From a virus (taxonomy: Duplodnaviria; Caudoviricetes), in IMG/VR virus record IMGVR_UViG_3300025679_000005: DNA of 64,000 bases. One strand, 5' to 3'. The notes beneath the pieces were generated by a model. That model was given only the letters and a program-made list of their open reading frames with translations. It was not told the DNA's origin and ran no database searches. Numbering within the stretch: position 1 is the first letter of the stretch; every line of letters starts with the position of its first letter. Made by a program: the position numbers and the translations under genes. This document shows, one piece after another, positions 8,463 through 26,347 of this stretch.

Positions 8463-9650
8463 TCAACCCCATCCCTAAAGGGCGGAGTTTTGCAGATCAA
8501 GTCCATGGCTCACAACCACTTCAACCCTGTCCGCGTTTGGCCTGATTACGGTGGCCCGGCTAGCAATTACGCTAGCCGCGTTGGCGTCGGCATCCGCGCT
8601 GTGCCCACATGCAAGACAAGCAAACAGATCGCGAGTCTTACGGTTGGCCTTCTCGATATGACCGCAAACGCGGCATTCCCGGGAAGTATTGCGAGGATCG
8701 ACAAAACAGACAGCAACCCCAGCACGCTTGGCTTTGTACCCGATCTTGCTTTGCAAGTCAGCGAAGGCCCAAGAGTGCAGAGAGCGTCGTTGCGACCTGG
8801 AAGCTCGGATCCGGGAGCGGATGCCATCGAGGTTTTCGATGGCTATACCGCGTCCGGTGCGTTCGGCAGCATCGACAATCTGTTTAGAAATAACATGATT
8901 CACATGCGAAGAAAATCGGGATTCTTTGCGACGACGCTTCTTGAGCAGCCGTTTAGCGCTTTTGGTGCCTTTCGTTTGGAGCTTTTTGCGCAACCGGAAT
9001 GCCCGTCCGCGGAGTGCATTAAGGTGTGTTCCGCTGAAATTCTGGCCGTCGCTAGTGGTAGCAATATTCACGATGCCAACGTCTACCCCGAGCCAGCCAA
9101 GCGTCTTATGCTCTTCGGTGTCAGGCACATCGACAGTGACAAACAGGTAGAATTTTCGGTCACGAAGGATGAGATCGGTTTCGCCACGCTCGTACTTGAG
9201 CAAGGCTCGCTGGTGGGTGCCACAAACGAACGGGATACGTTGACGGCCGTTGACTGTCCAGATATTGGTGGAATCTCCCCGCCACGACAGGATCCTAGCA
9301 TCGTACGAGATGGCCCCCAGCGGCCGGAACGTTCGACGACAGATTTTGTCGAGTTTGTAGGAGTCAGCGACCTTGGCGATGCATCGCACGACTACCTGCG
9401 AGGACATTCCTGGAAATTCAGAGCGAGCGTCGTGATAAGCGAGCTTATGGAGGGCGAATTGCCGGAAGATCTGTCCTTCCCAGGCGCGGTCGGAAATCCA
9501 GTTGCAAGCAGCATTAGCTCGACGGATCGTAGCCTCAAGCGCAGCAAATTGCTCAGCCGTCGGCTTGAGCTGAACTTGCACCACGAGCTTCATTTCACAA
9601 TGCTAGCAGTTTCTATACTTGAAGCAAGCCAAGCCGTAACAAGTCTGCGC
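8460..9650 (-). mobile_element. TnpB-only IS200/IS605 (IS1341-like) element; boundaries approximate
   Basis: tnpB with no tnpA; right-end-like hairpin CTCCGCCCTTTAGGGATGGGG immediately after the gene on the minus strand; codon style differs from flanking genes. Confidence 0.7.
8475..9593 (-). CDS. tnpB: RNA-guided endonuclease TnpB (IS200/IS605 family)
   Basis: N-terminal LKPTAEQ helix, RuvC-I LGVDVG, RuvC-II IAIENL, zinc finger CRVC...CLAC, RuvC-III ADANAA. Confidence 0.92.
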   Translation of the reverse strand: MKLVVQVQLKPTAEQFAALEATIRRANAACNWISDRAWEGQIFRQFALHKLAYHDARSEFPGMSSQVVVRCIAKVADSYKLDKICRRTFRPLGAISYDARILSWRGDSTNIWTVNGRQRIPFVCGTHQRALLKYERGETDLILRDRKFYLFVTVDVPDTEEHKTLGWLGVDVGIVNIATTSDGQNFSGTHLNALRGRAFRLRKKLQTKGTKSAKRLLKKRRRKESRFSSHVNHVISKQIVDAAERTGRGIAIENLDGIRSRIRASRSQRRSLHSWAFADLQSKIGYKAKRAGVAVCFVDPRNTSRECRVCGHIEKANRKTRDLFACLACGHSADADANAASVIASRATVIRPNADRVEVVVSHGLDLQNSAL

Positions 9651-11214: not shown

Positions 11215-11715
11215 ATGGATATGGAAAATCAAATCTGCATCGGCCTATTCGGTACTTGCGACAAGATACGCTGGCGAGACCCCTTCATGGCCGCCTACGA
11301 TGCCAAGGGAGTCTCGTACTTCAACCCTATGGTCGACAACTGGCATCCAGGCATGGTCCCATTGGAAGCCCAGCACCTCGCTGAGGACCCGATCATTCTC
11401 TTCCCAATCCTCAAGGACTCCTACGGCCTGGGCTCGTTATCCGAGGTTGGCTTTGGACCCCTGAGGGCTCTACGTCAGAACAAGTACCGCTCCTTCGTGG
11501 TACTCATCGACGATGACGTGACCGATGCCCTCAAGGCAGATGCACTTCGTGCCAAGGATTCGACTAGGGGTCGGGCTCTCGTCAAAGGACATCTCAAGAA
11601 CATGGGCATGTCCAACCTTTACCTGGTGGAGACTCTAGACCAGATGCTGGAGACCAGCCTGAAGCTCCACAAGATTCACTCGAACTTGGAAGAACTTCAG
11701 GCTCTTCGAGCGTGA
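11215..11715 (+). CDS. Nucleoside 2-deoxyribosyltransferase-like protein
   Basis: IGLFGTC...WRD...YFNPMVDNW...E pattern. Confidence 0.55.
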   Translation: MDMENQICIGLFGTCDKIRWRDPFMAAYDAKGVSYFNPMVDNWHPGMVPLEAQHLAEDPIILFPILKDSYGLGSLSEVGFGPLRALRQNKYRSFVVLIDDDVTDALKADALRAKDSTRGRALVKGHLKNMGMSNLYLVETLDQMLETSLKLHKIHSNLEELQALRA

Positions 11716-11912
11716 TCCATCTTCGAAAAGATGGCCGTCGTGCCAAGATCCCTACGACTTGGTGCGGCGCCGATCCAACCTTAGAGATAGCGGTGCGTCA
11801 GGACGCCAAAGTTACATGCCTGAAGTGTCTTACCACTCTGAGCAGCTTTATTCTTGAGGCTGTTGAGAATGGTGAGCGTTTCCTCGCTACCTTTCCCGAA
11901 AGCAACCCATGA
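11712..11912 (+). CDS. Small hypothetical protein
   Basis: GTGA/ATGA-coupled on both sides. Confidence 0.45.
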   Translation: MIHLRKDGRRAKIPTTWCGADPTLEIAVRQDAKVTCLKCLTTLSSFILEAVENGERFLATFPESNP

Positions 11913-13255
11913 TCGAAATAGATAAAATACGAGCAGTCAACCACATCCTCGTCCATGACAATTGTTCGGACGGGACTGCCAGCGCTATGATCCTCAGGAA
12001 CGTCCTACCCAATGTGAAGGTCACCTTCATGCAGTACGAGACGGAAGCCCACAAGACGCTGGATCCAGAGCCTGGGCAGCTCTTCTGCGATCTCAGCCCC
12101 CACAGGGACCGTTACAAGGCCTTCTTGGAGGCCGGCGCCATCGTGCTTGACCATCACAAGACCGCCAAAGGCGTTGTTATGCCCTTCGTGGAGGCGGGCT
12201 TGGGAGCTTTCGGAGACGAAATAGCTAACCCAGGAGTGTGCGGGGCGGTATTGGCCTTTAGTGAGGTCTGGTCCGTCGTCAATGCTGACGAAATACTTCG
12301 GGAACATGTCGCCGACTTCTTGGAGGGGGCTCAAGACCTCCTAGATGAGGCGGAGACTGAAGCGGACCTGCTGTCTGTTCGGACGCTTCTGCTGGGCAAA
12401 AATGGGCCTATGACTGGGATTCTGAAAAGTTTGGGGACTGTGCTCGCCCCTAAGCGGGCTGAAATAGGCACCACAGTCAATGCTGCTAGGGATCACGTGG
12501 AAGCGCTATACAACCACCATCGAACCCGGATGCTGGGAATGCCCTATGGGGACACCCCTAGTACATACGGCCGAGGGACTTCAGGTGTAGTCCGCGTCAT
12601 GCAAGAACTCGCCACGTTGGCGGGCATCCGCGACACCTGGCAGAAGCAGGACCCACGGTTCCGCGAAGCCTGTGAGCAAGCTGACGCCCTGCATTGGTGG
12701 CCTTGGGAGAAAATAGACGGCACCAACTGGAGGGACTGGTCCAAACACCTGCTGGAAATAGGCCCGGTGCTCTACAATCGTAGCCTCAAGCACGTCGACA
12801 AGGCGATTGCAGGATCCTACAAGTTCACTTCAGAGAAGGGTCGCAAGGTCACGGTGTTCGAAGGCACGAAGCCGACCTCGGACGCAGCTGAGAAGATGGG
12901 AGCCGACAACGATTTGACGATCGGTTTCGCCCTGTTCGTGGAAGACGGTAAGCAGAAGATGATCTTCTCCACCCGTTCCCGAGGGGACTTCGATTGTAGC
13001 GCCTTTGCCGCCGCTTACGGTGGGGGTGGGCACACCAAAGCTGCCGGCTTCAGCCGTGACCTCAAGCCCCTGGACTTGCAGCCCTTCGCCCTGATTCAGC
13101 GCCTGTTCGAGATCTACGAGGGTCTGGAGGCCGATTGGAAGGTCCTGTTCAACTCCGAGGAGTACAAGAACAAGACCTTACCCAAAGACACCTACCAGAA
13201 GATGGTTACGAAGTACCTCGATGACCGGTTTGGGTCTTCAAGGATTACCCTCTGA
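11909..13255 (+). CDS. DHH/DHHA1-family phosphoesterase with an internal PheRS-alpha-N-like insert
   Basis: HDNCSDG, LDHH, STRS...GGGGHTKAAGF; insert RTLLLGKNGPMTGILKSLG...IGTTVNAAR. Confidence 0.8.
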   Translation: MIEIDKIRAVNHILVHDNCSDGTASAMILRNVLPNVKVTFMQYETEAHKTLDPEPGQLFCDLSPHRDRYKAFLEAGAIVLDHHKTAKGVVMPFVEAGLGAFGDEIANPGVCGAVLAFSEVWSVVNADEILREHVADFLEGAQDLLDEAETEADLLSVRTLLLGKNGPMTGILKSLGTVLAPKRAEIGTTVNAARDHVEALYNHHRTRMLGMPYGDTPSTYGRGTSGVVRVMQELATLAGIRDTWQKQDPRFREACEQADALHWWPWEKIDGTNWRDWSKHLLEIGPVLYNRSLKHVDKAIAGSYKFTSEKGRKVTVFEGTKPTSDAAEKMGADNDLTIGFALFVEDGKQKMIFSTRSRGDFDCSAFAAAYGGGGHTKAAGFSRDLKPLDLQPFALIQRLFEIYEGLEADWKVLFNSEEYKNKTLPKDTYQKMVTKYLDDRFGSSRITL

Positions 13256-13584
13256 TTCTTCATCGGCAGTAGCTCCGATGAAGATCTCCACCTCCATTCC
13301 CCGGATCTTGTTGAACAGGACGGGGTCTGGGGGCGGGATGTATTTGACGATCGGGTGCAGTTTACAACCCTCGTCCTGGCAAACTGAGGCCTCATCGTCC
13401 AGGGCATTGGGGTTGAAGATGCGAAGCTCCGCTTCTTATTGCTAGCCGTGAACCCCACCATCTCCCAATCAGCCCCCTCTGGAGGAACTGGATCAGAGGG
13501 TAGCGTATCGTATGAATCACCATCCCGATCCATGTACTCATGGTAGAGACTGCCGTGGGTTGTCTTGTATTCGTACTGTGTCAT
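13192..13584 (-). CDS. Hypothetical protein; 3' part possibly frameshifted
   Basis: ATG preceded by GGA; a protein-like alternative frame begins near 13430. Confidence 0.35.
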   Translation of the reverse strand: MTQYEYKTTHGSLYHEYMDRDGDSYDTLPSDPVPPEGADWEMVGFTASNKKRSFASSTPMPWTMRPQFARTRVVNCTRSSNTSRPQTPSCSTRSGEWRWRSSSELLPMKNQRVILEDPNRSSRYFVTIFW

Positions 13585-13833: not shown

Positions 13834-14622
13834 TTATTTCTTGCTCTTCTTCGGCGAGGTCTTCTTGGCGTCGTTCAAGCTCATCTTCAAGGCGTCGAAG
13901 AGGTCGACGATGGTTGCCTGGGTGGAGGTTGTGACGACGCTGATCTCCTTGCCGGCGACCTTCTCCTCGACAGCGGCCTTGACCGCCTTGGCGTACTCAT
14001 CCTCGTACCGGTGGGACTCGAACGCCTTGGAGGTGAGGTGGGCCACCAGCTTCTCAGCCAGCTCCATCTCAGAGGGCGTCACCAGGCAGGGGATGACCGT
14101 GACTTCCTCGAAGTTCCGGACCTCATTGGCGTAGAACAGGACCTGAACCACCAGGCGATCCCCGTACGGGCGAAGGGCAACCAGGTGCTCCTTACCCTTG
14201 GTGCTCCACTTGGCGATGGCGACGACGCCCTTCTTCTTCATGACCTGGGCCAGGAGGCAATAGCCCTTGTCGCCACCCTTGTCGGGGCCGCAGTAATAGG
14301 ACTTATCGACCTGAATTTGGTCAATATCGGAGGCGGGGACGAATTCCTGAATGGTGATCGTCTTGGTCGAAGGCAGAGCCAGAGTGTCCAGTTCATCGCT
14401 GGTGAAGGTCACGAACTGGCTTTTGGCGAATTCGTAGCCCTTGAGTAAGGAATCGTACTCGACCACATCTCCGGTCACGGAATCGACGTTCTGCTGCTTA
14501 ATGCGATTTTTGGAGGGGGTCAGGAGGTTGAATTTGAGGGCCTCGTCCGAAGCCGAAACGTACAGCTTCACTGGAACGGAAACTAGACCGAAAACGATAG
14601 AGACACTGGCAGTCGAGCGCAT
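13834..14622 (-). CDS. ku: Ku DNA end-binding protein (prokaryotic/phage type)
   Basis: IVFGLVSVPVKLY, LLKGYEF, DKSYY, GKEHLVALRP, TIVDLFDALKMSL plus a basic tail. Confidence 0.92.
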   Translation of the reverse strand: MRSTASVSIVFGLVSVPVKLYVSASDEALKFNLLTPSKNRIKQQNVDSVTGDVVEYDSLLKGYEFAKSQFVTFTSDELDTLALPSTKTITIQEFVPASDIDQIQVDKSYYCGPDKGGDKGYCLLAQVMKKKGVVAIAKWSTKGKEHLVALRPYGDRLVVQVLFYANEVRNFEEVTVIPCLVTPSEMELAEKLVAHLTSKAFESHRYEDEYAKAVKAAVEEKVAGKEISVVTTSTQATIVDLFDALKMSLNDAKKTSPKKSKK

Positions 14623-14713: not shown

Positions 14714-15721
14714 GTGATGTCGTGCATTTGCCCAAGCTGCGGCTCTGATCTGACCTACGATGACGGTAGGGATGCCTGGACGTGCCTTAGCTGCGGCTTC
14801 TTGGGGCCGAATGACTCTGTGTGCCCCAAGCCTGGGGACGACCAGTCCTATAAATGGACCGGCCCGGATGCTGACGGGTTCTACAGAGTCAACACTGCCG
14901 CCGTTCGTAGGGTCGTGGCCAAGTACAAAGAGAAGAAGAAGAACCCGAATGGCGGCGACCCAATTTACCTCTACTCGGAGGGGGACGTAACCAAGCGAAA
15001 TAAAGCCAAGGCTGAGCGGCTTGAAAAGCTCTCGGGCAACATCGAAAAGCTTCGTACTCAGTACAGGAAAGACCTGAAGTCTGATGACCTAAAGACAGCT
15101 TTGGTTAGCCTGGCCGTCGCCCTCATCGACGAAACGGCGGAACGTGTCGGCGGCGTTGAGAGCACCAAGGGGGACAACGAAGATGGCAAGCCTCATTATG
15201 GTGTGACTACATGGAAGAAGAGTCATGTCCGCTTCAAGGGATCCGGAGCTACCATAGCCTATGTGGGTAAGAGTGGCGTTCCACAGAAAAAGCAAGTGAC
15301 AGACAAGGCTATCGTAACAGCGCTTCGTAAGGCTCATAAAGAATGCTCTGGAGAGGATCTATTCTGTCATGACGAGGTGACCATAGACGCTTCAAAGGTG
15401 AACGCCTACCTCAAGGACCTGGACCTAGGAATCACGGCGAAGGATCTTCGCGGATTTCATGCAAATTTTGCGATGAAGGAAGAACTCAAGAAGGCCCGAG
15501 CCAAGGGCGGCAAGCTTCCCACTGACAAGAAGGAAAGGGAAGACAAACTCAAAAAAGAGTTCAAGTCTTGCTTAGAGATCGTCGCAAAAGAGGTCGGAGG
15601 TCATACCGTTTCGACGCTCCAAAATCAGTACTTAGTCGACTCCATCGAAGAGGATTACCTGAAGGATGGGTCTGTCGGTGCTAAGATGACTGCTTCAGTC
15701 ATGTCTAGGTTCAGGGGTTGA
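14714..15721 (+). CDS. DNA topoisomerase IB (bacterial/poxvirus type); start uncertain
   Basis: Catalytic R-K-R-H-Y residues: ERVG, YVGKSG, TAKDLRG, GGHT...NQYL. Confidence 0.85.
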   Translation: MMSCICPSCGSDLTYDDGRDAWTCLSCGFLGPNDSVCPKPGDDQSYKWTGPDADGFYRVNTAAVRRVVAKYKEKKKNPNGGDPIYLYSEGDVTKRNKAKAERLEKLSGNIEKLRTQYRKDLKSDDLKTALVSLAVALIDETAERVGGVESTKGDNEDGKPHYGVTTWKKSHVRFKGSGATIAYVGKSGVPQKKQVTDKAIVTALRKAHKECSGEDLFCHDEVTIDASKVNAYLKDLDLGITAKDLRGFHANFAMKEELKKARAKGGKLPTDKKEREDKLKKEFKSCLEIVAKEVGGHTVSTLQNQYLVDSIEEDYLKDGSVGAKMTASVMSRFRG

Positions 15722-15727
15722 GACGCC

Positions 15728-16786
15728 GTGCCCAGCAAACTGACCATTGAAGAGATGAGATCCTTGGCCTCAGCTAAGGGTGGTAAGTGTCTGTCTTCGG
15801 AATACTCTAGTAATCGTGTCAAGCTATTGTGGACGTGCCATAAAGGGCATGAGTGGCTAGCTAAGCCCCAACACATAAAGGCCGGGAGTTGGTGCCCTAA
15901 CTGCGCGTCTAATGCACCCGTATCTATTGAGGATGCTCGTAAGGCAGCGACATACAACAATGGTGAGTGCCTATCTGATAGTATTCTAACTTCCAACCCT
16001 ATTCTTAAATGGAGGTGCGCTAAAGGACATGAGTGGGAAGGCTACTTAGGTAAAGTTCGTCGCGGTGAATGGTGCCCCCGCTGTGCTGGGAAACGGAATA
16101 CCTTGGATGATATGCAAGAATTGGCCGCATTATATGGCGGAAAATGCGTATCTCAAAAGTATGCCCCTAATACTAAGCTTAATTGGAAATGTCAATATGA
16201 GCACACATGGACGGCTTATCCCTATGTGCTAAAGCAGGGTTCATGGTGCCCCATTTGTGCTGGGCGTGGTAGTACCATCGAGGACATGCAGAGGCTTGCC
16301 CATGCAAATGGGGGGTGGTGCCTCTCGACTAAGTACATTACATGTCAGAAACATTTAACATGGCAGTGTGCTAATAAGCATATTTGGTCCACAGCACCTC
16401 TGACTATACGTCACGGGGCGTGGTGTCCGGAGTGTAAGCAGAACAAGCGAGAACGTGCTTGCAGGGCAGTATTTGAGACCTTGTTTCAGACTACTTTTGC
16501 GAAAGCCCGCCCACCTTGGCTTCGCAACTCTCGTGGAAACATGATGGAATTAGACGGATACTCTAATTCTCTCGCTATTGCCTTCGAGTACCAGGGATTT
16601 CAGCATTACGAACAATGCTATTGGCATTCAGGGCCTGAGGATTTCGCTTGGCAGCAGCAAAAAGATCAGGAGAAACGTCTTTTATGTAAAGCCAATGGGG
16701 TCACTTTAATCGAGGTGCCTTGGCATACAAAGGATATCACGGCTTTCATTCGGGGGCAGACTCTGGGCCTAGCAAAGGCTTCTTGA
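15728..16786 (+). CDS. Putative homing endonuclease: tandem zinc-ribbon repeats plus a PD-(D/E)XK/Vsr-like domain
   Basis: Four GG.CLS..Y...L.W.C..GH.W...WCP.C repeats; C-terminal MELDGY...IAFEYQGFQHY; AT-richer than flanks. Confidence 0.75.
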   Translation: MPSKLTIEEMRSLASAKGGKCLSSEYSSNRVKLLWTCHKGHEWLAKPQHIKAGSWCPNCASNAPVSIEDARKAATYNNGECLSDSILTSNPILKWRCAKGHEWEGYLGKVRRGEWCPRCAGKRNTLDDMQELAALYGGKCVSQKYAPNTKLNWKCQYEHTWTAYPYVLKQGSWCPICAGRGSTIEDMQRLAHANGGWCLSTKYITCQKHLTWQCANKHIWSTAPLTIRHGAWCPECKQNKRERACRAVFETLFQTTFAKARPPWLRNSRGNMMELDGYSNSLAIAFEYQGFQHYEQCYWHSGPEDFAWQQQKDQEKRLLCKANGVTLIEVPWHTKDITAFIRGQTLGLAKAS

Positions 16787-21034: not shown

Positions 21035-21150
21035 AATTGTCAGAGAACAGAGTGAGAGAAGAAACCCTCTTAAGTGTGGTGGACTCAACCACCAAAGTTG
21101 GGAATACGTAGGTACTCTCACGAGCCCCACTCAGCTAACTTTCGTTAGCT
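21035..21150 (-). ncRNA. Putative tracrRNA/omegaRNA-derived scaffold with anti-repeat; ends uncertain
   Basis: 21039-21076 is complementary (minus strand) to the repeat in blocks of 8/8, 4/5, 8/8 and 6/8 nt; GAAA-tetraloop hairpin at 21133-21150 over the effector stop codon. Confidence 0.65.
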
Positions 21151-23084
21151 GTCGTCCCTAGAGGAGCCACCGACACTGCGCCGCTATCGACACAGCCTTC
21201 CGGTTTGCCTTGCTTACGCTTGGCGCTCTTCCTATTGTGCTCAGGAGCTTTCGCTACTGAGTTTTGGGTCTGCTCTGCCCGAGCAGACCTTTCGGCCCAC
21301 GCTGTTTGGCGTATGGCCAGAAATTCTGGATTGTCAAAGTCCCGGAGATTCATAGCTGCGTTCGCATCTCGATGATTCTCTGGGAGGTGCCCCCTACGAG
21401 GCTCTCGAACGGATCCTACACCGAAGCCGCAGCTCTGGCATCGGAAATATTCGTTAGAACCCAACTTCCTGTTGAGGACCCCGCAGGCATGGCATTGCTG
21501 AGATGTGTATTGAGGCTCCTTGGCGTGGACTACCGCTCCTGCCCAGGTCGCCTTGTAGGTCAATTGCTGGCGAATTGCATAAGGTCCGATCTTGGCCCAC
21601 ATTTTGGCAAAGACCCGTCGCATGCGCTTGGATGCGTTCGAGCCAAGGTCTTGCTTCGCCATCATACCCTTGATGTCCAAGTCCTCGACATGGTAGGTGC
21701 TTGCGCCCTGATCAATCAGGCGTCGAGTGACCTGATGGCGTAGATCCCCCAACAGGTCCGTGATCTTGGAGTCAATGCGTCGGACTTGGCTCTCAACATC
21801 AAGGTAGCCGTTGGAGGGCTTTTGACGGATCGCTTTGCCTTTGGGGTCTAGGCGCACGCTGCCTTGATTGACGAGGACGATACCGTTCTTGTTCGCGGCT
21901 TCGACTGCGACTCGACCTTGTCTTCTGGAGAGTCTCCTCTGGAGGACAGCTTTTTTGCGTTCGAGCTTCTCGACCGTCTTCATAGCCTTCAGGTAGAATT
22001 CCTGAGCATAAATCTTGGCATTGGAGTCAACGACAAATGTCCGTTTGCCCAGGTCGATGCCTAAGGTCTCGCCAGTGCGAGGTTTTGGGTCCGGGGCATC
22101 GATCTCGACTGTCAGAGACAGGTACCAATGAGTCCCTCGTTTTTGGACGGCGACCTGAGTGTGGTTGACGTGATGAACCCCAATAGGGAAATACTTTGGA
22201 CGAGCCAATAGGATCCACTCGTGACCTTTTCCAAAGAACTTGCCAGCTCCTTGGATTTTGATCCGATCTCCCTGTATGGTAACTGTCGTAGACACTCGGA
22301 CAGCACCAGCCTCCGTCGTATAGGCTTCCTCTGGAATTATTGGGAAAGCCGTCACCTTCCCCAATTCCTTGAATGTTGGCTGATTCATCCGGAATTTAGG
22401 AGGGCTCTTCCCAGCCGCCTTGAACTTAGGGTACCCACTAGCTGGAACTCCTGGGGGCGGCTTTACCATGCGATCAAAAGCAAAGTCCACATCCGCGAGT
22501 GCCTCACGACTTACATAGGCAGTAGCTTGGTCCTTCAGGGGCGTTTTGCCGTACAGTGCTTGGGCATTCCTAGGGAATTTGACTATGGGGTCTTCGGCCC
22601 CAGGCTCCCATGCGTCTAGACCTAGGACTCGTGATGCCTGAGGTTGTAACTCCGAAAGATGCGATTCGAGCCATCGAATCGCATTGTTTGGGTTCACACC
22701 CTTGTACTTGTCACCGATCTTTAGGGAACCTTCGATACTGGGGGTTAGAAGGACATCCCCTAGCGGGCCGGAGAACTTCCAACCGCTAGCTTTCTGGCCC
22801 TCTTCTCGGAATTTCTCGTGCGTGTACCCAAGAGCTGTGAACAGAGCTTCGACATCGTAAATGGTTTGAGGGCGCTTGGCCTTTAGCTCTTTTGCGGACA
22901 GGTCCACCCACCCTCGGCGTAGTCCCAGTAGGTAGAGCTGCACCTTGTATGCCTTGTACTCCGCTGTCCTTACTGCGACACCGTGGTTATACGTTCGTCG
23001 AGTGACCCTGCACCAACGAGACAGTTCTTGTTCTTGCCTTGCTGTAGGGTAGATTCGACTTACGTAAGCTTTGTGGATCCTCAT
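21135..23084 (-). CDS. CRISPR-associated enlarged TnpB/Cas12-like (type V) RuvC nuclease, 649 aa
   Basis: TnpB-type N-terminus (YVSRIYPTARQE...RRTYN), RuvC-I LGIDLG, RuvC-II HVEDL, zinc finger CHAC...CQSC, RuvC-III RDANAAMNL; long insertion in the N-terminal lobe; adjacent to anti-repeat and array. Confidence 0.85.
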   Translation of the reverse strand: MRIHKAYVSRIYPTARQEQELSRWCRVTRRTYNHGVAVRTAEYKAYKVQLYLLGLRRGWVDLSAKELKAKRPQTIYDVEALFTALGYTHEKFREEGQKASGWKFSGPLGDVLLTPSIEGSLKIGDKYKGVNPNNAIRWLESHLSELQPQASRVLGLDAWEPGAEDPIVKFPRNAQALYGKTPLKDQATAYVSREALADVDFAFDRMVKPPPGVPASGYPKFKAAGKSPPKFRMNQPTFKELGKVTAFPIIPEEAYTTEAGAVRVSTTVTIQGDRIKIQGAGKFFGKGHEWILLARPKYFPIGVHHVNHTQVAVQKRGTHWYLSLTVEIDAPDPKPRTGETLGIDLGKRTFVVDSNAKIYAQEFYLKAMKTVEKLERKKAVLQRRLSRRQGRVAVEAANKNGIVLVNQGSVRLDPKGKAIRQKPSNGYLDVESQVRRIDSKITDLLGDLRHQVTRRLIDQGASTYHVEDLDIKGMMAKQDLGSNASKRMRRVFAKMWAKIGPYAIRQQLTYKATWAGAVVHAKEPQYTSQQCHACGVLNRKLGSNEYFRCQSCGFGVGSVREPRRGHLPENHRDANAAMNLRDFDNPEFLAIRQTAWAERSARAEQTQNSVAKAPEHNRKSAKRKQGKPEGCVDSGAVSVAPLGTTANES

Positions 23085-23449
23085 GATTTGATTGCTCGCT
23101 CCACTGCATCCAACAAGTCCGATTTGTGGGCTGGTTTGAACAAGACCTTGGCTTCTCCGATGTCTTGCAAAGCCGACATGACGGCTATAGGGGACCCTGT
23201 GTTGAATACGAAGCGCTTAGCCATCTTGGGCTTTGCTTTGATAGCAGCCTGCATGAGGGCGGGGCCGGACAGAACCGGCATCTCGCCGTCAGAGACCACA
23301 CAATCGTAGTCCTTCGCCAGGAGCCCCTTCAGGGCCTTCTCGCTGTCGATGTAGGTGTCCACATCGTAACCCGAAAGACGCAGAGTCCTGGACAGGGCCT
23401 CAGCCACTTCCGGACTGTCGTCTACGACTAGTACCTTTTTCATCGCCAT
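23081..23449 (-). CDS. Stand-alone response-regulator receiver (CheY-like)
   Basis: VLVVDD, VVSDGEMP, NTG, FKP. Confidence 0.88.
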   Translation of the reverse strand: MAMKKVLVVDDSPEVAEALSRTLRLSGYDVDTYIDSEKALKGLLAKDYDCVVSDGEMPVLSGPALMQAAIKAKPKMAKRFVFNTGSPIAVMSALQDIGEAKVLFKPAHKSDLLDAVERAIKS

Positions 23450-25001: not shown

Positions 25002-25214
25002 CTAAGTACAAGAGCAGGTGGTTTCTGGCCCCGGACCTTTGCCGCGATCACTGCAGGCTTCGCGTTTCAGCTCGTAGCACATGTTCCGGCACCCTCCCGG
25101 GTCGATTTGGGAGTGGCAGCGGACCAAGCATTTCGAGCAGGAACTCCTGATGTCAGCCGCCGTTCCTGCTGGCCAGGCGAACCCAACCAGCAGGAATAGG
25201 ATAGCGGCTTTCAT
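25002..25214 (-). CDS. Small secreted Cys-rich protein
   Basis: Signal-peptide-like MKAAILFLLVGFAWPAGTAA followed by 8 Cys. Confidence 0.5.
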   Translation of the reverse strand: MKAAILFLLVGFAWPAGTAADIRSSCSKCLVRCHSQIDPGGCRNMCYELKREACSDRGKGPGPETTCSCT

Positions 25215-26347
25215 AGGACACACTCTTGAGTGAGGGCCTCTTGGAGGGTTTCCGCAGTGATTGCAGGATCCTTGAGGACCATCAGCCGGGCTTTAGCCAC
25301 CGTCTGGGAGATGGCAGGACCGCTCAGCCCTGTATCCTTGATGAATTTCAAGGCGTCGAAGGGCGGTTTCAGGAACTTCAGGTAGTGTGCATCGAGTTCG
25401 GCATCGGAGTGGTGCCAGGAGAATTCCTGGAGCAAGCGGTATTCCTCTTGGCTGAGGGAGTGCCCCACCATCAACGGGCTGGTGAAGTTCATCAGCTTGA
25501 GGAGGGTACTGGTGTCTTTGACCGTGTTGTTGATGCCACGCCTCATTCGACCTTGGGGCACCATCATGAACACGATCTCCAACAAGCCTAGGTGGTGCAT
25601 GGCATCCAGCGCCAGCTCCAATTGGGGCTTGGGTAGGGTCAAGATCTTCTCGATGAAGATCATGGCCACTACCTCGTAGGGCAGACGACGAAGCTCTTCC
25701 GCCTTGCTCTTGAAGGCAAGCCAGGTGTCTGCACTAGGGGTGAGACCGTACTTGGCCCAGAACCGAATGCCACGAAGAATCCTTGAGGGGTCTTCGTCGA
25801 AGGTTTCCTCGGGATGCAAAGGCGTACGCAAGATCTTCTCCTGCAAGTCGTAGAGGCCTTTGCCCAGCAGATCAATGATCGGAGCCGATTCCGGCCCTTC
25901 CACGAGATCACCTAGACGCCACATGAGCGTACCGATTGTAAAATCGCGGCGGCTTAGGTCTTCTAAAAGTGTGCCGACGGCCACTTCCGACGGCTTATGC
26001 CCATCCTTCTTGGACTTGTTGTACTTTTCTTTGCGAGAAGTGACGATCTCGACCTTTTGACCTCGGAGGCTGACCCCTTGGAAGACGATGTCCTCAGCCA
26101 CGGGACCCAGGTGGACGACCCCGTACTGGTCAGGGTGACAGCCAACGTGAAGGCGCTTGGCAACTTCTTCGGCGAGAACCACTGTGGTTCGGCCTTCGGC
26201 GGGTTCCACGACCACATCGAGGTCTTTGACCCCGAAGCCTAGGACGAAGTCTCGAACGGCCCCACCCACGATGTAGCTGTCCCGACCCATGCCTACGGCT
26301 AGGGCTGATTCAGCGAGGAGGCGTAGCATTGCTTCTTCAGGGGTCAT
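25211..26347 (-). CDS. Class II tRNA nucleotidyltransferase (CCA-adding/poly(A) polymerase family)
   Basis: VGGAVRD...KDLDVV, RRDFTI, EDPSRILRGIRF. Confidence 0.9.
   Translation of the reverse strand: MTPEEAMLRLLAESALAVGMGRDSYIVGGAVRDFVLGFGVKDLDVVVEPAEGRTTVVLAEEVAKRLHVGCHPDQYGVVHLGPVAEDIVFQGVSLRGQKVEIVTSRKEKYNKSKKDGHKPSEVAVGTLLEDLSRRDFTIGTLMWRLGDLVEGPESAPIIDLLGKGLYDLQEKILRTPLHPEETFDEDPSRILRGIRFWAKYGLTPSADTWLAFKSKAEELRRLPYEVVAMIFIEKILTLPKPQLELALDAMHHLGLLEIVFMMVPQGRMRRGINNTVKDTSTLLKLMNFTSPLMVGHSLSQEEYRLLQEFSWHHSDAELDAHYLKFLKPPFDALKFIKDTGLSGPAISQTVAKARLMVLKDPAITAETLQEALTQECVL

Follow-up and report, generated by a model that had tools for sequence, protein, structure and literature searches.

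A phage DHH/DHHA1 phosphoesterase gene with an inserted homologue of the PheS N-terminal arm

Background

In the complex of Mycobacterium tuberculosis phenylalanyl-tRNA synthetase (PheRS) with its tRNA, the all-helical alpha1 domain binds the D-loop region. The contacts named in this domain are Thr32, Asp37, Arg45, Arg56, Ala57, and Asn64. They hydrogen-bond G45, G19/U20, and C56/G57 and vary between states (PMC8136816). This paper describes a phage gene in which a homologue of this PheRS arm is found within an unrelated enzyme. The gene lies at 11909-13255 (+ strand) in the Caudoviricetes record IMGVR_UViG_3300025679_000005. The stretch of this record that was analyzed, 64,000 nt long, is called the window below, and the protein encoded by the gene, a DHH/DHHA1 phosphoesterase, is called P0001.

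Related arrangements have been described for other enzymes. In Staphylococcus aureus FemA (1LRZ), which is an aminoacyl-tRNA-dependent transferase, the globular catalytic domain contains an inserted two-helix coiled coil of the SerRS-like type; its relative FemX is without this coiled coil (PMC5370406). A-adding tRNA nucleotidyltransferases and an Acanthamoeba enzyme (ntr4) have N-terminal DHH/DHHA1 extensions, the function of which is unexplained (PMC7947759). In the NCBIfam model NF041569 for the A-adding enzymes, the nucleotidyltransferase part is placed at positions 480-692 of 880.

Results

The insert is a homologue of the PheS N-terminal arm

The gene is present as an open reading frame (ORF) of 448 codons at the place given in the preliminary description of this DNA. 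Its parts are as follows (alignment A1 contains 23 members of the family; pLDDT is the predicted local distance difference test).

11909..13255, + strand: whole gene, 448-aa DHH/DHHA1 phosphoesterase with inserted arm (P0001)
11909..12280, + strand: N-terminal part of the DHH domain, residues 1-124 (alignment A1 and confident AlphaFold model, pLDDT 85-97)
11954-11974, + strand: motif I variant H16-x-N-C19-x-D21-G, residues 16-22 (alignment A1)
12149-12157, + strand: motif III, D81-H82-H83 (invariant in alignment A1)
12281..12598, + strand: insert, residues ~125-230 (alignment A1, models, and dN/dS)
12356..12526, + strand: match to Pfam PF02912 (Phe_tRNA-synt_N), residues 150-206, containing T159, R183, A184, and N191
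12599..13255, + strand: remaining enzyme with putative motif IV helix, helical linker, DHHA1 domain, and C-terminal helices
12884-13054, + strand: DHHA1 match to Pfam PF02272, residues 326-382
13019-13033, + strand: G371-G-G-G-H375 in DHHA1 (alignment A1)

The preliminary description had noticed a PheS-like peptide (DFLEG...EALY) at about 12310-12520. This peptide is found there, as residues 136-201 (nt 12314-12511), and its likeness to the PheS N-terminus holds up in profile searches. PF02912 matches the whole protein with 43.6 bits (E 2.9e-11) and the excised insert with 48.9 bits (E 6.3e-13), where the curated cut-off is 22.3. When residues 125-232 are searched with phmmer against all sequences in the PDB, all eight matches are PheS alpha subunits, the best being 4p71 (E 8e-6). 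Residues 133-208 of P0001 are aligned by BLASTP with residues 3-78 of E. coli PheS without a gap (E 2e-7 in this single comparison).

The structure prediction that had been proposed as a check gives the same answer. The AlphaFold model of the excised insert has a pLDDT of 78, with its helices at 84-93. These helices are found at about 126-147, 151-162, 167-175, and 180-209 in the numbering of the whole protein. In a Foldseek search of this model against the PDB, the top 16 matches are all PheRS alpha chains, and after them only unrelated helical bundles at E > 0.5 appear. The best local fit is to 7ka0_A, with a root-mean-square deviation of 1.9 Å over 79 columns. The arm is laid out as an arm helix (~126-146), tip helices (LLGKNG...LKSLG), and a return helix (~180-208, KRAEIG..VNAAR), followed by a low-confidence tether (209-226). 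Since the Pfam score, the PDB sequence matches, the ungapped BLASTP alignment, and the Foldseek matches of the insert model agree, the insert is a real PheS arm. It is a true homologue of the N-terminal arm of PheS-alpha and essentially complete, being equivalent to residues 3-78 of E. coli PheS.

Among the PHROGs, the insert matches the start of phrog_19793. This family is labelled "unknown function", and E. coli PheS matches it over the whole length with 605 bits; phrog_19793 is a phage-borne family of PheS alpha subunits.

The six residues named as tRNA contacts in M. tuberculosis PheS were mapped to the insert through an ungapped HMMER alignment to 7k98_A, and all six residue names were checked to fall on the right letters.

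Thr32: T159 in the insert, identical
Asp37: K164 in the insert, not identical
Arg45: L172 in the insert, not identical
Arg56: R183 in the insert, identical
Ala57: A184 in the insert, identical
Asn64: N191 in the insert, identical

Four of the six residues that contact the tRNA elbow are therefore identical between M. tuberculosis PheS and the insert, although the shared positions are also among the most conserved of the PF02912 domain in general. R183, A184, and N191 are also present in the second protein that carries the arm (P0002, see below).

The enzyme that carries the arm

The body of P0001 matches phrog_4771, "DHH phosphoesterase", with 96 bits (E 4.2e-27) in two stretches on either side of the insert. 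The DHHA1 domain (PF02272) is found at residues 326-382 with 26.3 bits, the curated cut-off being 25.9. Positions invariant in alignment A1 are H16, C19, D21, D61 (the motif II Asp), D81-H82-H83, D103, R241-D242-T243-W244, R356, and G371-G-G-G-H375. P0001 keeps all of them. Its DHHA1 half also has S354-T-R-S-R358. Judged by its sequence, the protein belongs to the DHH/DHHA1 superfamily and to PHROG 4771 and is an intact-looking enzyme. No Pfam match to the class II aminoacylation core (tRNA-synt_2d) is found in P0001 even at E <= 10, so P0001 is not a PheRS. In the BLASTP comparison with E. coli PheS, no significant alignment exists beyond the arm. No nucleotidyltransferase (PolyA_pol head) domain was found in P0001 by Pfam or NCBIfam, and no NCBIfam model matches the protein.

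Motif I in the whole phage DHH family is H-x-N-C-P/S-D-G. The invariant Cys19 takes the place of the first Asp in the D-x-D that is usual for DHH enzymes. The replacement is a family-wide variant and not a defect of the P0001 copy. It may mean another metal preference or another chemistry across the more than 1,600 members.

The PHROG 4771 phage family has more than 1,600 cluster representatives. When the family profile is compared with solved DHH proteins, only the DHHA1 motifs are matched. Borrelia burgdorferi DhhP (9r7o) is the best match (E 1.5e-8), followed by a Deinococcus RecJ-like protein, TM1595, GdpP, and NrnA. The GGGGH of P0001 aligns with the same motif in DhhP and in the RecJ-like protein (8ioo). 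Several relatives carry the JGI label "oligoribonuclease NrnB/cAMP/cGMP phosphodiesterase". The relatives without an arm look like ordinary small-substrate phosphodiesterases of the NrnA/NrnB type.

Some relatives have additional domains. P0052, P0072, and P0151 are fused to DUF7768 (C-terminal) or to YAcAr of the SLOG family (N-terminal). Another conserved C-terminal module of about 90 residues (YQRDNLVWLL ... NTGDWLGE ... GVG.PN), for which there is no Pfam match, is found in P0006, P0016, P0025, P0030, P0034, P0037, P0042, P0043, P0078, and P0087. This recurrent module and the DUF7768 and YAcAr add-ons may hold the key to the real substrate of the family. No relative of 785 aa or more was found, which is weak evidence.

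Position of the arm in the protein

The preliminary description had placed the insert between the DHH motif and the DHHA1 domain. The insert does come after D81-H82-H83 and before the DHHA1 match at 326-382, and its position can be refined. The pattern GIRD242TW resembles GIxTDTG of DHH motif IV, and from this pattern only, by the Aravind-Koonin motif definitions, we take it to be a putative motif IV. Because the insert is flanked by motif III and the putative motif IV, the alignment places it within the catalytic DHH domain, in a variable loop, rather than in the linker between DHH and DHHA1. Within A1 the segment is present in P0001 and P0002 only. In the other members, a helix ending in ...EVW(x)PL is followed within about 10-40 residues by the helix ...FATLAGIRDTWQ.

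This loop is permissive. P0225 has an unrelated insert of about 60 residues at the same site. Other long relatives owe their extra length to C-terminal modules and not to the loop in the DHH domain. The insert of P0225 and the shorter loops of P0003 and P0133 were considered as decayed PheS arms and rejected, as they have no BLASTP alignment and no Pfam match at E <= 10. No direct repeats of at least 6 nt are found at the insert junctions.

The AlphaFold model of the whole protein has a mean pLDDT of 84.8 and a predicted TM-score (pTM) of 0.75; the arm is less confident (62-82). In this model, the core helix 112-124, with the conserved PGVCGA loop (P108-G-V-C-G-A113) at its N-terminus, runs almost unbroken into the arm helix 126-146. 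Foldseek gives a probability of 1.00 to RecJ2, RecJ-Cdc45, TM1595, DhhP, Rv2837c, and NrnA, and there are 67 matches at E <= 1e-3. The TM-scores of the whole model are modest (0.2-0.5 by either normalisation), which is in keeping with a two-domain hinge protein that has an insert.

P0001 is also predicted as a homodimer, with an ipSAE of 0.71 as opposed to 0.00 for the best of three controls. Of 30 proteins whose solved structures are pairs of one chain, 20 reach the ipSAE mark, and of 23 with single-chain structures, 1 does; these counts apply only roughly to P0001, as its prediction was run with our own alignment, and with DHH dimers among the solved structures a pass may partly reflect memory of the predictor. 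Contacts agree between runs at 93% or more, and the pLDDT of the partners is at least 81. The confident interface is formed by residues 263-395, in the DHHA1 half and outside the arm. The model thus supports a homodimer joined through the DHHA1 half.

The arm is rare and under purifying selection

A word-indexed search of 5.8 billion clusters gives 1,209 relatives, and among the 120 listed PF02912 is found only in the query and P0002. P0002 (457 aa) is 86% identical to P0001 and has the same insert. It is encoded on a 2.3-kb contig from a different ENA sample. An exhaustive phmmer search of 1.84 billion representatives gives 1,678 relatives, with values below 1e-30 for 382. Among the 150 that were listed, the alignments of almost all are split into two stretches (about 1-125 and 225-405) that leave out the insert. 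A word-index search with the insert alone, limited to proteins of 190-2000 aa, gives the two carriers and no other protein. With a database of this size, the tool does not reach as far as PheS, and the search thus names no donor lineage.

Searches of other collections add no carrier. The whole protein has no tblastn match in 50,697 GenBank phage records. For the insert, the only match in these records is one of 38 residues (E 0.08) to two short Listeria phage entries without annotation, which we attribute to chance. A scan of IMG/VR with the whole protein gives no confirmed relative, and a feature search of the ESM Atlas with the insert gives no usable match. A 464,302-bp ENA contig and a 13,482-bp Logan contig each encode an identical protein. 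Since the identical protein exists on separate contigs and an 86%-identical copy in a third sample, the gene is not an assembly chimera. Among sequencing runs, one DNA run, probably from the source sample, is listed as containing the sequence, and no RNA run is.

Rates of nonsynonymous and synonymous change (dN and dS) between the two carriers were estimated by the Nei-Gojobori method; dS is about 0.8-1.3 overall and about 0.8-1.0 in the insert and its PF02912 part, near saturation, so the following values are approximate.

DHH half: dN/dS 0.047
DHHA1 half: dN/dS 0.036
Insert: dN/dS 0.19
PF02912 part: dN/dS 0.24

By this comparison of codons, the arm is clearly under purifying selection and constrained less than the catalytic core. 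Helix 1, the return helix KRAEIG...NAARDHVEAL, and the tether motif (MPYGDTP..YGRGT) are almost invariant between the carriers, and the tip is the most variable part. At third codon positions, the GC content (GC3) of the insert is 0.56 in one carrier and 0.50 in the other, compared with 0.66-0.77 in the flanking parts. This may be a hint of a separate origin. The hint is a weak one because 16% of same-sized windows in the other genes of the window have a GC3 as low as the insert.

Genomic neighbourhood

The window seems to belong to a huge phage from soil or peat. Its genes include ClpX, CN-hydrolase, DUF1848, two TnpB-like genes, Ku, topoisomerase IB, Dam, RNase HII, endonuclease VII, transglycosylase, and a nucleotidyltransferase of the CCA/PcnB type. 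Scans of the window for tRNAs and Rfam families give no match. Genes and ORFs near the DHH gene or referred to below are as follows.

8475-9593, - strand: TnpB/Cas12f-like gene
11215..11912, + strand: two ORFs of 166 aa and 66 aa, each stop overlapping the next start
11215-11715, + strand: the 166-aa ORF, with a sub-threshold likeness to nucleoside 2-deoxyribosyltransferase (PF15891, 18.6 bits, cut-off 30)
13192-13584, - strand: 130-aa ORF
13834-14622, - strand: Ku homologue
14714-15721, + strand: type IB topoisomerase
15728-16786, + strand: 352-aa protein of repeated DUF4379 treble-clef zinc-finger units
21135-23084, - strand: TnpB/Cas12f-like gene, unusually long (649 aa), with N-terminal HTH_OrfB_IS605
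23081-23449, - strand: 122-aa receiver-domain (Response_reg) ORF, after the 649-aa TnpB-like gene
25211-26347, - strand: 378-aa PolyA_pol-head nucleotidyltransferase of the CCA-adding/PcnB family (Pfam finds the head domain only, no HD domain)

The ATG of the DHH gene overlaps the stop of the upstream 66-aa ORF (ATGA). Because the stops overlap the next starts, the 166-aa ORF, the 66-aa ORF, and the DHH gene are probably translated together. In related phages, different genes, some of them HTH-like, are found at the upstream position, and the upstream genes at four loci are not all homologous. The 166-aa product was considered as a conserved partner related to DUF7768 and rejected for this lack of homology, together with a BLASTP E of 1.4 and an hhalign probability of 0.1. 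At the other end, the DHH gene shares its last 64 nt with the 130-aa ORF on the opposite strand. Both public assemblies call this ORF as a gene, and it matches no family.

The 378-aa nucleotidyltransferase scores 94 bits or less with NCBIfam, far under every equivalog cut-off. It is not an operon partner of the DHH gene, since it is 12 kb away and on the other strand.

The order ClpX ... DUF1848 ... CxxCxxCC ... DHH ... topoisomerase IB is kept in two related contigs (359 kb and 309 kb) and, more loosely, in a third (441 kb). The DHH gene of all three is without an arm. The syntenic orthologue in the 359-kb and 309-kb contigs (P0003) shares 65% identity with P0001 over a best local alignment that spans 47% of the query. 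As the syntenic DHH genes are without the arm, the arm is a lineage-specific add-on to a conserved phage gene. For the same reason, a related phage keeping the neighbourhood without the arm, the neighbourhood is uninformative about the arm.

Other features of this region are noted here in their own right. The Ku homologue is divergent beside the type IB topoisomerase, and Ku is absent at that position in the syntenic 359-kb contig. In the 441-kb relative, topoisomerase IB is fused to NUDIX domains. The DUF4379 gene has the lowest GC3 (0.47) of 24 window genes measured, the mean of 106-codon windows being 0.66. On account of this low value, it may be a recent acquisition.

Discussion

What the arm may do

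We give a probability of roughly 0.45 to the reading that the arm docks tRNA or a tRNA-like RNA so that the DHH site acts on a single-stranded end. In favour of this reading are the homology of the arm to PheS, the contact residues it shares with M. tuberculosis PheS, the purifying selection on it, the invariant residues kept in the catalytic body, and the presence of a CCA/PcnB-type nucleotidyltransferase in the window. The arm would bind the elbow of the RNA, as in PheRS. A single-stranded end of this RNA, in the simplest case the acceptor end, would be presented to the DHH/DHHA1 cleft. The enzyme could then trim nucleotides from this end or remove a terminal phosphate or cyclic phosphate, either for clearing damaged tRNA ends for rebuilding or for disabling host tRNAs. 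The healing of 3' ends that the preliminary description proposed would be one such activity, and the trimming of CCA from host tRNA another. The substrates of DHH enzymes of the NrnA-type class are the free ends of short single strands, or terminal phosphates, and for this reason the acceptor tail (four nucleotides) or a damaged version of it would be the most natural target. The core helix and arm helix 1 together span about 35 residues, or ~50 Å if straight, as roughly estimated from the lengths of the helices. As the contact residues lie on the distal half of the arm, the binding surface would be a few tens of angstroms from the active site, which is roughly of the same order as the distance from elbow to CCA. 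Both arms would be free in a homodimer joined through the DHHA1 half, so that action in trans, as in PheRS, could also occur. Which end and which chemistry apply is speculation. A more specific form of this proposal is tentative and rather doubtful. It is that of an elbow-guided DHH enzyme that measures from the corner of the tRNA to its acceptor end and, by trimming or dephosphorylating, either disarms host tRNAs or resets 3' ends damaged by host defence for the CCA-type enzyme of the phage.

Several observations speak against a tRNA-docking role. Two of the six contact positions differ (K164 and L172). Arm helix 1 is strongly acidic, with a net charge of -6 compared with 0 in E. coli PheS, and the whole arm has a net charge of -3, the E. 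coli arm -1. In PheRS, the arm is just one of several tRNA-binding elements, and its contacts are variable (PMC8136816). The arm by itself may thus bind weakly. It evolves 4-5 times faster than the catalytic halves of the protein, and more than 1,600 relatives function without it. The gene lies in a neighbourhood of DNA metabolism (Ku, topoisomerase IB, Dam, RNase HII) and not beside tRNA genes, none of which were found in the window. The relatives fused to DUF7768 or YAcAr point to small substrates, and DHH enzymes of jumbo phages have been proposed as phosphodiesterases of cyclic-nucleotide signals (PMC7824862).

The last two points are also part of the case for the main alternative, which is possible but in our judgement rather unlikely. 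Here, the enzyme keeps an ancestral small-substrate job, on nanoRNA or dinucleotides, pAp, or the cyclic oligonucleotide signals of CBASS or type III CRISPR. The arm is then an accessory without a part in substrate selection, such as a regulatory sensor (e.g., one switched by tRNA), a localisation handle, or a protein docking site. S-x-R-S-R and GGGGH are common to NrnA, DhhP, and RecJ-like small-substrate enzymes, and such a job is in line with the JGI names of the relatives, the nucleotide-binding type of the fused domains, the counter-signal role proposed for jumbo-phage enzymes, and the absence of the arm from nearly all family members. It leaves unexplained, however, why a complete elbow-binding module has been kept under purifying selection with contact residues preserved. 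The PheS arm has no known protein partner, and in the model it is outside the confident dimer interface.

It is also conceivable, with a distinctly small probability, that the arm is a general nucleic-acid-binding hairpin and that the enzyme has a RecJ-like role on single-stranded DNA or RNA-DNA ends in phage replication or repair. The best Foldseek matches of the whole model do include archaeal RecJ2, RecJ-Cdc45, and bacterial RecJ, and Ku, topoisomerase IB, Dam methylase, RNase HII, and endonuclease VII are neighbours. Yet the TM-scores to RecJ are no better than those to the NrnA/TM1595 class, the body is without the extra OB and other domains of processive RecJ, and the same neighbourhood is found without the arm in a related phage. 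Moreover, the PheS arm is known solely as a binder of the tRNA elbow (PMC8136816). Less probable still is a functionless passenger, that is, a fragment of pheS, possibly from a phage-borne copy, brought by recombination into a loop that permits insertions. In its favour, pheS is found in phages (phrog_19793), unrelated insertions of up to about 60 residues occur in the loop, as in P0225, only two carriers are known, and in both of them the lower GC3 of the insert hints at a separate origin. But with dS near saturation, a dN/dS of 0.19-0.24 is not that of neutral change. Two lineages 14% apart have both kept the reading frame and the full extent of the domain, and the PheS signature residues and the tether motif are invariant between the carriers.

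Significance

The two modules of P0001 are both well known. Their combination appears to be new in that neither a name for PF02912 outside of PheRS nor one for an architecture of DHH and PheS arm was found in the literature and databases, in agreement with the preliminary description, which did not recognise the fusion as a described one. P0001 offers a testable case of a tRNA-recognition module moved from a synthetase to an unrelated catalytic scaffold, with the arm-less orthologues of related phages as natural controls. If the arm directs the enzyme to tRNA, DHH would be a new enzyme class in the struggle between phage and host over tRNA integrity. P0001 would then be the first among DHH enzymes to have a macromolecular tRNA substrate set by a borrowed synthetase module, and it would give a lead to the role of the unexplained DHH/DHHA1 extensions in A-adding tRNA nucleotidyltransferases. 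If the arm does not do so, a fragment of a synthetase has been reused for a purpose other than tRNA binding. The scope is narrow, as the two carriers known are both uncultivated.

Comparison with known systems

NrnA (Bacillus subtilis 5j21, S. aureus 8iu7, M. tuberculosis Rv2837c 5jju), TM1595 (Thermotoga maritima, 5o25), DhhP (B. burgdorferi, 9r7o), and NrnB/COG2404 have the same two-domain fold of DHH and DHHA1. The DHH motif, the putative motif II Asp, S-x-R-S-R, GGGGH, and a predicted homodimer are common to P0001 and the class of NrnA, TM1595, and DhhP, and the arm-less relatives of P0001 (310-370 aa) are of the same size as these stand-alone enzymes. P0001 differs from them in several ways. 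Sequence similarity is confined to the DHHA1 motifs (best E 1.5e-8 with the family profile), and motif I is H-x-N-C-x-D-G with an invariant Cys instead of the usual D-x-D. The dimer of P0001 is predicted to form through the DHHA1 half, and a PheS arm of about 105 residues is found inside the DHH domain.

The insert is homologous to the coiled coil of bacterial PheRS alpha1 (PF02912; 7ka0, 7k98, 4p71, 3pco) over the whole arm. Both form the same hairpin of helix, short helices, and helix. The LGKxG and R-A-E-x-G-x-x-x-N signatures and the following flexible tether are also found in the insert. Unlike the arm of PheRS, the insert is not N-terminal and not joined to a class II aminoacylation core, its helix 1 is much more acidic, and P0001 is without a beta subunit for other tRNA contacts.

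The multifunctional CCA protein of the E. coli type (NF008137) is similar in concept to the role proposed in the preliminary description, as in it a metal-dependent phosphohydrolase cleans tRNA 3' ends before the CCA is rebuilt. Its HD domain reportedly has phosphatase and cyclic-phosphodiesterase activities, as Yakunin and colleagues are said to have found in 2004. The hydrolase of this protein is HD, not DHH, and is fused to the CCA enzyme, whereas the nucleotidyltransferase of the window has the head domain only and is encoded 12 kb from the DHH gene.

The A-adding enzymes (NF041569) have a DHH module physically coupled to an enzyme of the tRNA 3' end and are thus a precedent for DHH chemistry at tRNA ends. 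Their link to tRNA is the fused nucleotidyltransferase, whereas that of P0001 would be a synthetase arm, as P0001 is without a nucleotidyltransferase domain. FemA is similar to P0001 in that a long helical hairpin of the synthetase type is found in a loop of an unrelated enzyme and in some members only. FemA, however, has a GNAT fold, and its SerRS-like arm was recognised by structure, while P0001 is a phosphoesterase with an arm homologous to PheS at the level of sequence. With the DHH extensions of the A-adding enzymes and the coiled coil of FemA as precedents, a tRNA-directed role for P0001 is less exotic.

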